A stretch of DNA of 64,000 nucleotides from assembly GCA_964016885.1 (NCBI GenBank), contig OZ024754.1, positions 10,478,001 to 10,542,000 on the forward strand, given 5' to 3'. The translations under genes and the position numbers were made by a program. Below are positions 18,833 to 51,386 of the stretch, one piece after another. The stretch comes from Eledone cirrhosa. Taxonomy: Eukaryota. Numbering within the stretch: position 1 is the first letter of the stretch; every line of letters begins with the position of its first letter. The notes below the pieces were generated by a model that worked only from the letters and a program-made list of their open reading frames with translations, did no database searches and was not told the DNA's origin.

Positions 18833-19254
18833 TGTAAAGTTATATTTAAATTGTTGGGTTACAACTAGTAAATATTTATAACTGATATAAAAGCACTCAA
18901 GTATTTGGAGTATATTTACGATATTAAATAAATGGAAACTATATTTATAAAACCATATTTATTTCATTATATATATTTCAGGGATATCATATTAACAATA
19001 TGTTATGCCTTCTTCAGACAAAATACAATATAGACAGTTTTATAGATAAATAGATTTGACATACCGTTCAACATCGACTTGTATTTGAAAAAGTTGATTT
19101 GGCAGTGAAAAAATTGTATAAAAATCTATAAAACTGTCTGTATTGTATTTTGTCTGAAGAAGGCATAACATATTGTTAATATGATATCCCTGAAATATAT
19201 ATAATGAAATAAATATGGTTTTATAAATATAGTTTCCATTTATTTAATATCGTA
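18833..19254. mobile_element. Fold-back mini-element A: 131-bp inverted arms (18917-19047 / 19124-19254) with hammerhead-like motif and one-sided tail
   Basis: Near-perfect inverted repeat; CUGAAGA-AGG...CCU-GAAA-UAUA-UA at 19154-19201; embedded in (TA)n. Confidence 0.7.
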
Positions 19255-19940
19255 TATATATACATATATATATATATATATACATATATATATATACACA
19301 TATACATACATATATATACATATATACATACATATATATATACACATACATACACATATATATACATATATACATACATATATATATACACATACATACA
19401 CATATATATATACACATATATATATATATATACATATACATACACATATATATATACACATATATATATATACACATATATATATACACACATATATACA
19501 CATATATATATACACACATATATACACATATATATACACATATATATACATATACATATACACATATATATACATATACATATACATATATATACATATA
19601 CATATACATATATATACATATACATATATATATATATATATACATATATATATACATATATATATATACATATATATACATATATATACACATATATATA
19701 CACATATATACATATATATATACATATATACATATATATATACATATATATATATACATATATATACATATATATACACATATATATACATATATATACA
19801 TATATATACATATATATATATATATATACATATATATACATATATATACATATATATACATATATATACATATATATATATACATATATATACATATATA
19901 TATATACATATATATACATATATATATATATATACATATA
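19255..19940. repeat. (TA)n/(TACA)n microsatellite
   Basis: Direct reading. Confidence 0.97.
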
Positions 19941-22537
19941 CGGTTACGGTTCAAGAAATGAAGAAGGAGTGAGACTTCTTGAATTTTGTGATGCAAGTAC
20001 ATTGACTATTTGCAACACAAACTTCCAGAAACCTGCCAATCACCTAATAACCTACAAATCTGGTGAGCACATAAGCCAGATTGACTTCCTGCTAGTTAGG
20101 CAGCGGGACAGGCAGATAGTGTCTAATACCAAGGCATACCCTGGGGAAGAATGTACCCCACAGCATAGGTTAGTTGTTAGTGATATCTCAGTAAGCAAGA
20201 GATGGAATGAGACTTATAGGAAGGTGTGGAGAAGAAAGGTCTGGAAGCTAAAAGACCTTTCACTAAAATTCAAATTTAGGAAAGCCCTTCAAGATGTATA
20301 TGACGAAAAAGAAGACGATTTAGAGACGTATGACATAGATAATAACTGGAAGTTCTTACGTGACAACTTGCTGAAGGCTACTGATGAAACCTGTGGCTGG
20401 AGCAGAGCTCCAACCAGACAGAGAGTGACCTGGTGGTGGAACAGCAGTGTAGATAAGGCTATTAGAGACAAAAGACTAGCATGGAAGGCTTGGAATAAGG
20501 GTGGGAGTAGGGAAGAATATACAGCCACTAAGAGAGAAGCTAGACGTCAGGTGTACTTAGCACGCAGGGAGGCAGAGAGTAGGAGGTTTGCCAATGTTCT
20601 GCGACGGGAAGATCAGAGGCGTGCGGTGTTCCACATTGCAAGGCAGTGTGTCAATGCAAATCAGGATGTTGTTGGTGATAAATGTGTCCGGGATGATGCC
20701 GGTGTACTTAGTGTCACGAATGACCAGAAAAAGGAGGCCTGGAAATGTCATTATGAGAGACTGATGAATGTGGAGAACGAATGGGAGAGAGAGAAATTAC
20801 CCTTGGTAGATCCGACAGAGGGACCAGCTATTGAGATTGACGAATATAGGGTCCAAGAGGCGATTAGGGAAATGAAAAATGGTAAGGCGGCCGGACCATC
20901 GGGAATAGTTGCTGAGATGCTGAAGGCATCAGGGGACGTAGGCACTAAACTGGTTGCACGCATAATCAATCAGGCTATATATGGTGGTGTCATACCCAAA
21001 GACTGGTGCAGCAGTATTCTCATAAATTGCTACAAAGGTAAAGGGGATGCTTTGGAGAGGAGCAATTATAGGGGTATAAAACTGATAGATCAGGTTATGA
21101 AAGTGGCAGAAAGGATTTTAGCACAACTAATTAGAGAAAGGGTCAAACTAGATGAGATGCAGTTTGGTTTTGTGCCTGGGAAGAGTACAACAGATGCCCT
21201 CTTCTTGGTGAGACAAATGCAAGAGAGGTTCTTAGAGAAGAATAAGCCACTATACTTAGCCTTTGTTGACCTAGAGAAGGCCTTTGATAGGGTACCCCGA
21301 TCTGTCATCTGGTGGTCCCTAAGGAAGCTGGGTGTTGAGGAATGGCTTGTAAGGACAGTGCAAACTTTGTACAGAGGTACTCTCAGTAAAGTCAGGGTAG
21401 GAATGGAGTTTAGTGAGGAATTCCAGATACAAGTAGGAGTACATCAGGGTTCGGTCCTCAGCCCGCTCTTGTTCATTATAGTCCTCCAAGCCATAACAGA
21501 GGAGTTTAAGACTGGCTGTCCATGGGAACTTCTCTATGCTGACGATCTGGCTCTTATGGCAGAATCAGTAGAGGAGCTAGAGAATAAATTCCGGCTATGG
21601 AAACAGCAGTTGGAAGCAAGAGGACTGAGAGTAAATCTAGCTAAGACAAAAGTGTTGATGAGTAGAAAAGAGGACAAAACCCTGATTCCGTCAGGGAAAT
21701 GGCCATGTTCGATATGCAGAAAAGGAACTGGCATAAATTCTATAAAATGCACACAATGTAGGTCCTGGGTACACAAGAGATGTAGCGGGATAGCAGGCAA
21801 ACTAACAGGTAGGGAGAACTATGTATGCAGTAGATGTACAGGGAAATTAGACAGTAGAAGTCGCACTGATAGACACATTTTTCAAATGCGAGAGGGCGCT
21901 ATAGAAGTGGTGGATAGCTTCCGGTACCTAGGAGATCAGATTAGCATGGGAGGAGGGTGTTCCGAGGCCATAGTATCTAGAATAAGGACGGGTTGGAAGA
22001 AGTTTAGGGAGCTGCTTCCTCTGTTGACGAAGAAGGGTTTCTCCCTGCGTACGAAAGGCCGGTTGTATGATGCCTGTGTGAGGAGCGCGATGCTGCATGG
22101 TAGTGAGACATGGGCAGCTACCGCAGAAGATATGCGACGGCTGGAGAGAAATGAGGCAAGCATGCTCCGTTGGATGTGCAGTGTAAATGTGCGTGAACGA
22201 CCCAGCATAAATGTGTTGAGAGAGAAACTGTGTCTGAGAGGGATAGAATGTAGTGTACGGGAGAGGAGACTGAGGTGGTATGGACATGTGATGCGCATGG
22301 AGGATGACCGATGGGTGAAGAAGTGCCAGGAAATGCCAGTTGAAGGAAGACGTGGTAGAGGTAGACCACGAAAAACATGGGCGGAGGTGGTGAGAACAGA
22401 CCTCAGATCATTGAAGCTCACGGTGGAGATGACGAGGGACCGTGACGAGTGGAGAGATGCTGTGCTGAATAAGACCCGTCCCACCCTTGCAAGCAGGGAA
22501 AAGCGGACGTAAAATGATGATGATGATGATGATGATG
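19941..22537 (+). mobile_element. RTE-clade LINE, 5'-truncated, young, inserted in (TA)n, (ATG)n tail
   Basis: Begins GYGSRNEEG inside the APE domain; uninterrupted ORF; abrupt GC increase; (ATG)n tail directly after the stop. Confidence 0.93.
19969..22512 (+). CDS. RTE ORF: C-terminal APE endonuclease + reverse transcriptase with internal PHD-type zinc finger (no native start)
   Basis: SQIDFLL..QHRLV (APE), [66 protein letters not shown]4HC3 motif at 21700-21837. Confidence 0.92.
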
Positions 22538-23823
22538 ATACATATATATACATATATATATATATATACATATATATACATATATATATATATACATATA
22601 TATACATATATATATACATATATATACATATATATACATATATATATATATATATACATATATATACATATATACATATATATACATATATATATATATA
22701 TATACATATATATACATATATATATATATATATATACATATATATATATATATATATACATATATATATATATATATATATATATATATATATATATATA
22801 CATATATATATATATATACATATATATATATATATACATATATATACATATATATATATATATATATACATATATATATATACATATATACATATATATA
22901 TACATATATATATATACATATACATATATACATATATATATATACATATATATATATATATATATACATATATATATATACATATATATATATACATATA
23001 TATATATACATATATATATATATATACATATATATATATACATATATATATATATACATATATATATATACATATATATATATACATATATATATATACA
23101 TATATATATATATACATATATATATATATACATATATATATATATACATATACATATATACATATATATATATATACATATACATATACACATACATATA
23201 TATATATATATATATATACATATATACATATATATATATATACATATACACATACATATATATATACATATATACATATATATATACATATATATATATA
23301 TATACATATATACATATATATATATATATACATATATATACATATATATATATACATATATATATATATACATATATATACATATATATATATATATACA
23401 CATATATATATATATATATATATATATACATATATATATATATATATACATATATACATATATATACATATATACATATATATACATATATACATATATA
23501 TACATATATACATATATATACATACATATATATATATATACATATATATATATATACATATATATATATATACATATATATATATATACACATATACATA
23601 TATATATACACATATACATATATATATATATACATATATATATATATACACACATATACATATATACATATATACATATATATATATATACATATATACA
23701 TATATATACATACATATATATATATATATACATATATATATATATACATATATACATATATATATATATACATATATACATATATACATATACATATATA
23801 CATATATATATATATATACATAT
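22538..23823. repeat. (TA)n/(TACA)n microsatellite
   Basis: Direct reading. Confidence 0.97.
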
Positions 23824-50448: not shown

Positions 50449-51150
50449 TTGGAATAAATGCTCTGAAATAGCGATATATATGTGAATATAGACATAGAAT
50501 ATTCGAAAATATTCTGTATGTTTATAATAAACATTTTGAAGACCTAATCGCTATAGAATAGAATACGTCACGTATTACAATTAGATTCTCGATAAAAGCA
50601 AGGGAAGTAATCTACGCGTTTCATTCTTGTTAGAAATCATCAGGACTACATATCCAGTGCTTTTATCGAGAATGACACAGCTAGAGACTTATAGAATACT
50701 TAGCTGTGTACAGGAACTGGTTTGAAAGAGCGGTTGCCGGTCCGGCAGAAATTAGAAATTGGAATAAATGCTCTGAAATAGCGATATATATGTGAATATA
50801 AACATACAGAATATTTTCGAATATTCTATGTCTATATTCACATATATATCGCTATTTCAGAGCATTTATTCCAATTTCTAATTTCTGCCGGACCGGCAAC
50901 CGCTCTTTCAAACCAGTTCCTGTACACAGCTAAGTATTCTATAAGTCTCTAGCTGTGTCATTCTCGATAAAAGCACTGGATATGTAGTCCTGATGATTTC
51001 TAACAAGAATGAAACGCGTAGATTACTTCCCTTGCTTTTATCGAGAATCTAATTGTAATACGTGACGTATTCTATTCTATAGCGATTAGGTCTTCAAAAT
51101 GTTTATTATAAACATACAGAATATTTTCGAATATTCTATGTCTATATTCA
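50449..51150. mobile_element. Fold-back element F: inverted dimer of a 310-bp hammerhead-bearing monomer (retrozyme-like)
   Basis: Palindrome 50483-51150; direct repeats at 310-bp spacing (50449/50759 and 50798/51108); flanked by (TA)n. Confidence 0.85.
50984..51026 (+). ncRNA. Minimal type I hammerhead (mirror copy at 50607-50649, minus strand)
   Basis: GUAGUC-CUGAUGA-U-UUCU-aaca-AGAA-U-GAAA-CGCG-UA-GAUUAC, enclosed by a 16-bp helix ATTCTCGATAAAAGCA/TGCTTTTATCGAGAAT. Confidence 0.88.
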
Positions 51151-51180
51151 TATATATATATATATACATACATATATATA

Positions 51181-51386
51181 TTTCTGTAAAGTATTTCTGT
51201 AGAAAAGGTAAAGGAAAAAAGAGTGCTCTATATATTGAACAGAGCTATTTAATTACATAAACAACACAGTATAATTATTTCATTATTGACGGTTTCAAGA
51301 AATTAGATGATTTTTGCAAGAAACATCCATTTTCTTGAAACCTTCAGTAATGAAATAATTATATTGTGTTGTTTATTATGTAATTA
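51181..51386 (-). mobile_element. Fold-back mini-element K: about 54-bp arms (51250-51302 / 51331-51386) plus tail
   Basis: Inverted arms; on minus strand a hairpin followed by GAAA-CCG-UC (3' half of a hammerhead). Confidence 0.55.

Follow-up and report, generated by a model that had tools for sequence, protein, structure and literature searches.

Insertions of endonuclease-bearing (EN+) Penelope-like elements (PLEs) are known for a one-sided tail and an inverted copy, both textbook features of the class, and the available sections of the two accounts that describe them either ascribe the tail to nuclease resolution or leave it open, stating no rule for its end (PMC3846280, PMC8557442). The reverse transcriptases (RTs) of PLEs are placed as the sister group of TERT (PMC8557442). 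How PLEs choose their internal starts and come to have a one-sided tail and an inverted copy has been an open question since the tail was described. In PAc, the Poseidon element of the anole Anolis carolinensis, cleavage and extension take place on both target strands in vitro; the two internal RNA sites at which RT starts match the genomic ends, and the tail is what lies between these sites; RNA lying 3' of the start is needed, and a dimer has been predicted (PMC11167929). Here, we report a computational analysis of short self-folding islands that sit among long (TA)n tracts in a 64,000-nt stretch of Eledone cirrhosa DNA (contig OZ024754.1, C14:10478001-10542000; hereafter the window, with positions counted from its first letter), part of a TA-rich animal genome of 3.0 Gb. 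Several of these islands derive from PLEs of the Hydra clade, and their RNA appears to carry two bulged stems, each of which probably docks the RT such that copying starts 5-9 nt upstream. The motif is a real, conserved cis-acting RNA motif in a known element class, and the mechanism that we infer for it is a likely one.

Long copies of families A and C, to which islands A and C of the window belong (Table 1), run into an ORF (open reading frame) for RT and endonuclease that carries CxCX5C, DKT, RW[RK] and CxxC..E..N..CxH and has no CCHH. The single ORF with RT and C-terminal GIY-YIG endonuclease is common to these elements and EN+ PLEs, and the inverted 5'-truncated copy with its one-sided tail is alike in both (PMC3846280, PMC8557442). 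The likeness to the Hydra clade takes in RWK/RWR, DKT, CxCX5C, the absence of CCHH, CxxC/CxH round E and N and the (TA)n setting (PMC8557442); the clade also has hammerhead motifs (PMC8557442), for which a core pattern is seen here in some families. The ORF marks match those given for this clade, and islands A, C and E are identified from their sequence as truncated fold-back insertions of Hydra-clade PLEs within (TA)n. Families E and F3 and a relative of island D lead into the same ORF N-terminus, the link for E and the D-like family being to the N-terminus only. RW[RK] is present in all nine aligned N-termini, with DKT in eight and DKS in one. Tails enter an alternating purine-pyrimidine repeat in 88/93 cases for C, 43/53 for E and 36/48 for A, and family K often ends in (CA)n. 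A hammerhead core pattern was matched on the sense strand in A, in E and in three of five leaders from outside organisms (see below), and not in C; Rfam gave no hammerhead match in the leader-bearing loci or among 150 of the 404 rows for the window, these rows being microsatellite and palindrome matches below cut-off.

Family C offers the fullest coding sequence, a 721-aa ORF at locus L317 with YRDD and YIG motifs, whose alignment with a Neptune ORF spans RT through endonuclease (23% over 446, E 6e-7) and for which a Pfam search found no family at E 0.1. Locus L317 has direct and inverted terminal repeats, i.e. a pseudo-LTR (long terminal repeat) layout with an inverted copy. This family is very young and abundant, with many near-identical copies, open frames of up to 819 aa (L317-L328, L335), long head-to-head pairs of up to 3 kb and, for its C-terminus, 50,057 first-look candidates in the genome, relatives included.

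The position of the hairpin relative to the end of the duplicated arm (the short end, as opposed to the long end reached by the tail) was examined across the genome. Thirty copies each of E, A, C and K and 30 of the window's Neptune-type element were fetched, plus 98 stretches of about 10 kb picked beside matches or at arbitrary places. Scripted detection over 1.52 Mb returned 201 one-sided-tail fold-backs, which fell into 55 tight clusters and then 40 looser groups; 37 of these have arms of at least 30 bp, groups were weighted equally and four groups correspond to families of the window. The start of RCTC falls 5-10 nt past the short end with a group weight of 13.7/37 compared to 1.17 in same-sized windows from -40 to +39, an enrichment of about 12-fold over elsewhere. 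In 19/37 groups, half or more of the copies have NCTC at this offset, and 17 of the 19 have a downstream GAG. An earlier note on this DNA had proposed aligning many fold-backs on their arm ends, and the alignment of these 37 groups finds the hairpin non-randomly placed, as that note expected. An assembly artefact was rejected, as dozens of loci, spread over many contigs, have these ends in common.

Where a copy is 5'-complete, its tail runs on into the ORF leader and a second stem lies just beyond the end point of the tailed copies. Such copies include L339 of family A (the one complete copy among six fetched for its 5' end) and, with an ORF start, L009 of family E; the relative of island D at L246 has both the Hydra ORF and a second stem. 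Only 5'-complete copies show stem 2, which stands 38-87 nt ahead of the ATG and is absent from inserted DNA: it lies 6-9 nt past the long end and is thus left uncopied there. The distance from the short end to stem 1 is 7 nt in A, 8 in C, 7 in E, 5 in F3 and 7 in the D-like family, and that from the long end to stem 2 is 8, 6, 9, 6 and 6 nt, respectively. Almost all ends fall on a TA of the element. Among loci not fetched for the family in question, ends fall at the two sites in 51/53 cases for A (whose anchor may catch close relatives), 9/10 for E and 25/26 for C, and the 6-10 further TA steps that lie between these sites see little use. F3 is two-ended once an alignment artefact is removed; a third F3 end was rejected as such, 13 of its 14 instances being short ends that run into long TA runs. 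The two stems of family A resemble diverged duplicates. L171 provides a sixth leader, one with no mapped ends and with mismatches in its second copy of the stem. Untargeted fold-backs of A, C, E and K comprise 16 of the long+short type, none long+long, none short+short and three unclear; since all 16 classifiable ones pair a long with a short end, the two starts would seem to be coupled.

The motif is a bulged stem of the form RCTC-helix-UU-GAGY-RC. With the first GAG after CTC taken as the partner and pairing ignored, the closing pair is Watson-Crick in 12/17 groups versus 6.9 when permuted (p=0.0075). By eye, the helix continues inward past a 2-nt bulge on the 3' side, which reads UU in 20/31 stems. 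The three inner pairs are Watson-Crick in 60/93 cells (32/51 and 28/42 by subset) versus 27.5 permuted, a figure that 0/20,000 permutations reach and that is to be read as consistency and not as an exact probability; it is obtained only with a 2-nt bulge, bulges of 0, 1, 3 or 4 nt giving p of 0.59-0.96. Stem ends are kept as loops range from 8 to 73 nt. Pair counts were scripted, the differing loop lengths having defeated a MAFFT alignment of the stems. The hairpin had been described beforehand as covarying, which is borne out for the closing pair and for the inner helix past the bulge and not for the outer T-A pair (tested as T-R, not significant). Unbulged pairing directly inside the CTC/GAG core was likewise not significant, and intermolecular pairing of the near-palindromic 3' half was dropped by eye, its commonest form being one that would have central mismatches. 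In Rfam, eight leader-bearing loci matched only a microRNA model, via microsatellites and below its cut-off, and the stems match no family.

The same arrangement recurs outside this genome. With an alignment of five N-termini as the query, six metagenome contigs were matched at 33-38% identity with a Hydra-type ORF start; five have an intact leader, and all five leaders bear two GCTC..GAGC stems, separated by 39-66 nt and lying 33-68 nt ahead of the ATG. One of these ten stems is without the usual bulge and one contains an N. A stricter stem pattern has 1-3 matches in each metagenome leader compared to 0.04-0.07 in shuffled leaders, and L352, the only metagenome contig with a 3' end, enters (TA)n 6 nt before stem 2. 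A search of viral contigs found no relative. Taken over all ten leaders, stem 2 precedes the ATG by 33-87 nt in every one, with a stem-to-stem distance of 39-108 nt.

As stem 2 lies beyond the long end and outside the inserted DNA, the stems most likely act on the template RNA before copying starts. The two-stem pattern fits two RT start sites, as demonstrated in vitro for PAc (PMC11167929). In the mechanism that we propose, an RT-endonuclease dimer would bind both stems on one RNA and nick both strands of the (TA)n target, and each target 3' end would pair over 1-5 nt with the UA(U) of the RNA and prime complementary DNA (cDNA). The downstream start would copy the tail and stem 1, and the upstream start neither. 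The same upstream stretch of RNA would be copied into both cDNAs, through strand displacement or with the use of a second template, and the two cDNAs would then be joined head to head at their truncation points and filled in, such that tail length would be set by the spacing of the two stems. The tails measure 89 nt in A, 80 in C, 69 in E and 89 in F3 (60-110 nt overall) compared to 30-40 bp in EN+ PLEs (PMC3846280, PMC8557442); this departure is one of size only, and the length equals the stem spacing.

Several observations weigh against the docking of RT by paired stems. NCTC is missing at the offset in 18/37 groups, false fold-backs and Neptune-type families among them, and 2/19 NCTC groups have no GAG partner. 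Stem 2 of E is a short GCAC/GTGC variant without a bulge, about 6/54 copies of E stop short by 6-11 nt at an internal TATAT, the short end of F3 shifts among TA registers, and the D-like distances rest on one copy per end, the long end coming from one diverged copy. The second stem of K is unproven, a pattern search for a 5'-complete copy having given 18 matches of which four stretches were read with no clear copy found (three consisted of (CA)n or (TA)n flank, and the fourth was a doubtful continuation in which no ORF was present). Rare short+short (L010, L025, L080) and long+long (L090) fold-backs occur. The CTC/GAG core is invariant and hence uninformative on pairing; the bulge was first spotted by eye in the same sequences and the families are related, so that the p-values overstate independence. 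Stems alone fold weakly (z -0.5 to -3.5, with 2/9 below -2) and several are missing from whole-leader folds, although weak folding in isolation would fit a protein-bound element. PAc is of a different clade, and its starts show no homology to the target (PMC11167929). Neptune-type families, whose tails are short, and island B are without the RCTC/GAG stem, and one Neptune-type family is also two-ended (26/27) without it.

Four other explanations were weighed against this mechanism. The first, which we consider unlikely, is that the stems direct the GIY-YIG endonuclease to cut an intermediate, either an RNA:cDNA hybrid or a longer cDNA, at the upstream TA, and that the ends are cut points. The TA found at nearly every end is indeed also the target dinucleotide, the tail has been ascribed to "EN-mediated resolution" by Craig 2021 (PMC8557442), and the D. 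virilis tail is needed for endonuclease recognition as reported by Frangieh (PMC11167929). However, the genomic ends of PAc match its mapped RT start sites (PMC11167929), and covariation indicates a single-strand fold rather than a site in double-stranded DNA. Tails that start at (TA)n without an arm of their own number about 2/266 as read by eye, so that chromosomal copies are seldom re-cut; the nicking role suggested in the earlier note could apply to an intermediate.

The second, which we regard as quite unlikely, takes the stems for sites of ribonucleoprotein assembly or translation control near the start codon, with ends that follow from the footprint and TA pairing and involve no fixed measuring. 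It would account for the constant proximity of stem 2 to the ATG in the ten leaders, for a spacing that varies over 5-9 nt and for ends that move to nearby TA registers. A footprint would not, however, be expected to give each stem its own end at a similar distance when the stems themselves stand 39-108 nt apart, nor to leave the other TA steps between the two sites hardly used.

The third was a form of the explanation first offered, in which the cDNA folds back and self-primes a second strand that stops at the hairpin. Self-priming accounts for one long and one short end per fold-back and was proposed at the inverted junctions of rotifer PLEs (PMC3846280), but it gives no account of a long end that obeys the same rule with its stem outside the inserted DNA, and short+short fold-backs occur; we consider it very improbable. 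Of the earlier proposal that a cis signal fixes the end of the second strand or a nick, the cis signal tied to the arm end is retained, and the second-strand stop is not supported, as the same stem lies 6-9 nt past the long end. Chance, or a functionless by-product of one ancient duplication, has next to no probability, for although the stems are short and AT-rich and those of family A look like diverged duplicates, it is contradicted by the positional enrichment, by covariation with stem ends kept over widely differing loops, and by conservation of the motif in organisms whose proteins are only 33-38% identical, where the observed matches far exceed those in shuffled leaders.

Whether docking by paired stems extends beyond the Hydra clade is a separate matter. 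The tail of the Neptune-type element in the window is about 36 nt long and lacks the RCTC/GAG stem; the element has 315 first-look candidates in the genome, and Neptune-type families are linked to CX2-5CxxC endonucleases. Read by eye, two Neptune families (L329:2925-2990; L331, minus strand) seem to have a short motif of another kind following each of their two ends, and in the B family, including L248, a stem whose loop reads GCC seems to follow both ends at 8-9 nt. In the printed anole template, a helix with a 3'-side bulge can be made out by eye a few bases after +111-118 (PMC11167929). The Neptune families and B hint at clade-specific versions of the stem repeated after both ends. It is a tentative possibility, one that we would not yet favour, that PLEs in general rely on paired docking stems in their RNA, with each subunit of an RT-endonuclease dimer having its own stem, to launch two cDNAs from both target strands on one RNA. 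If so, the tail and fold-back would be a direct print of that geometry, and the sister group of telomerase would possess a template-selecting RNA element.

The features of the window are listed in Table 1.

Table 1. Islands, stems and associated features in the window.
Feature	Position	Strand	Description
Island A	18839-19254	-	3' fragment, fold-back, assigned to Hydra-clade PLE; arms 18917-19254, one-sided tail ~18839-18916
Stem 1, family A	18893-18911	-	ACTC...GAGT GC; 7 nt past short end
Hammerhead-like core, tailed arm of A	18976-19017	-	mirror copy 19154-19195 (+); pattern match only
Island B	23824-24472	+	fold-back, non-coding tandem element, unit ~490 bp; arm ends 24409
Island B, details	24116-24140; 24418-24432		hammerhead-like core; different stem; tandem array at locus L248
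Island C	25285-25474	-	3' fragment, fold-back, assigned to young Hydra-clade PLE; arms 25362-25474, tail 25285-25361
Stem 1, family C	25331-25356	-	2-nt UU bulge; 8 nt past short end
Island D	26058-26245	+	arms 26058-26133; tail with TCTC (26137)...GAGC (26178) variant
Island E	26980-27187	+	3' fragment, fold-back, assigned to Hydra-clade PLE; arms 26980-27119, tail 27120-27187
Hammerhead-like cores, island E	27060-27082; 27017-27039	+; -	core pattern match
Stem 1, family E	27126-27146	+	
Neptune-type PLE	28012-29860		CX2-5CxxC linker, GIY-YIG (PF01541), frameshifted ORF, inverted 5' copy
Island K	51184-51383	-	fragment, fold-back; arms 51250-51383, tail 51184-51249; layout of a PLE, no linked ORF
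Stem 1, family K	51223-51245	-	GCTC...GAGC AC; 6 nt past short end; folding z -3.5

The coordinates previously given for the arm ends and hairpins of A, C, E and K agree with ours. The arm of E ends exactly where stated, with TACTC at 27125 and GAGTA at 27141-27145, and both the arm end and the minus-strand stem of A are as tabulated; in C, exact pairing reaches 25366 and goes on to the arm end past one mismatch, and in K it reaches 51257 and goes on past a 3-nt indel. The reported gap of 4-5 nt between arm and hairpin is true from the longest possible arm end and becomes 6-8 nt when counted from the first T of the flanking TA run, as 1-3 junction bases are common to island and (TA)n. The distance from the hairpin to (TA)n, put at 40-60 nt, was found to be about 41-55 nt. 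The islands are not the sequence-unrelated set that they were taken for, since A, C and E belong, as families, to a single PLE clade and some sequence is common to C and E. Island B does have its arm end inside the hairpin described for it, but it is a tandem element without coding sequence, its stem is of another kind and its ends are less sharp. Island D is a fifth case in the window, absent from the earlier list, and D and K bear the same stem as A, C and E. Tails beyond the window measure about 55 to 175 nt. The pattern ACTC..GAGYRC, which was written after the data had been seen, has five matches in the window compared to 0.6 in shuffles. Two more matches of the pattern outside fold-backs, at 33479-33504 (-) and 63870-63896 (+), are probably due to chance with 0.6 expected.

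Other insertions share these tracts. In the segment 50453-51149, a tandem unit of about 310 bp forms a fold-back; both arms carry hammerhead-like cores, and the tail, some 35 nt long, holds a weak GCT..AGC variant. An island at 16278-17126 has a hammerhead-like core on the minus strand and no fold-back and appears to join the ends of two element families; a genome search with the element at 16278-16540 gave no match. A LINE (long interspersed nuclear element) fragment with RT and a PHD finger, which we take to be RTE-like, is inserted in (TA)n at 19951-22512. At 51452-51550 and 51590-51750, beside island K, stand a short A-like fragment and another that bears a hammerhead, PLE fragments of different families having accumulated in the same TA tracts.

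The earlier note had known of no description of the signal, which holds in part: a stem loop at an RT start, and the tail as the span between starts, have been published for the anole PLE (PMC11167929), and the twin bulged stem was not found. A literature search, covering mostly papers free of subscription, found no twin stem or spacing rule described, and none appears in the accessible parts of PMC4209133, PMC13282606 or bioRxiv 10.64898/2026.07.22.740005. PAc resembles the Hydra case in its two internal RT starts spanning the tail, in the cutting and extension of both strands, in a stem loop near the start and in the requirement for 3' RNA (PMC11167929). It differs in that initiation occurs in one AC-rich stem loop and without target homology, and the available part of the PAc account reports no conserved or duplicated motif, covariation or fixed spacing (PMC11167929). 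For the Hydra clade, the sections at hand describe few families and no RNA signal other than hammerheads (PMC8557442), whereas here the clade is abundant and young.

A twin covarying stem kept across distant animals reduces the question of how PLEs choose their starts to a few mutagenesis experiments, and the stem rule helps to call the boundaries of Hydra elements inside (TA)n. In LINE-1 twin priming, both target strands prime cDNA on the element RNA to yield an inverted insertion, with the second primer annealing at variable internal sites and copying another stretch of the RNA; in the Hydra case, the two starts have fixed positions and the same region is copied from each. The template boundary element of telomerase lies 5' of the template and stops copying, a protein-bound helix at a set distance defining the copied bases. 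The Hydra stems, in contrast, are paired and lie 3' of each end on the sense RNA, and as such are not boundary elements. If they dock the enzyme, they would constitute a short portable signal for internal RT start in the closest relatives of telomerase, and their likeness to the template-defining stems of telomerase would be that in both a protein-bound helix defines the bases to be copied.

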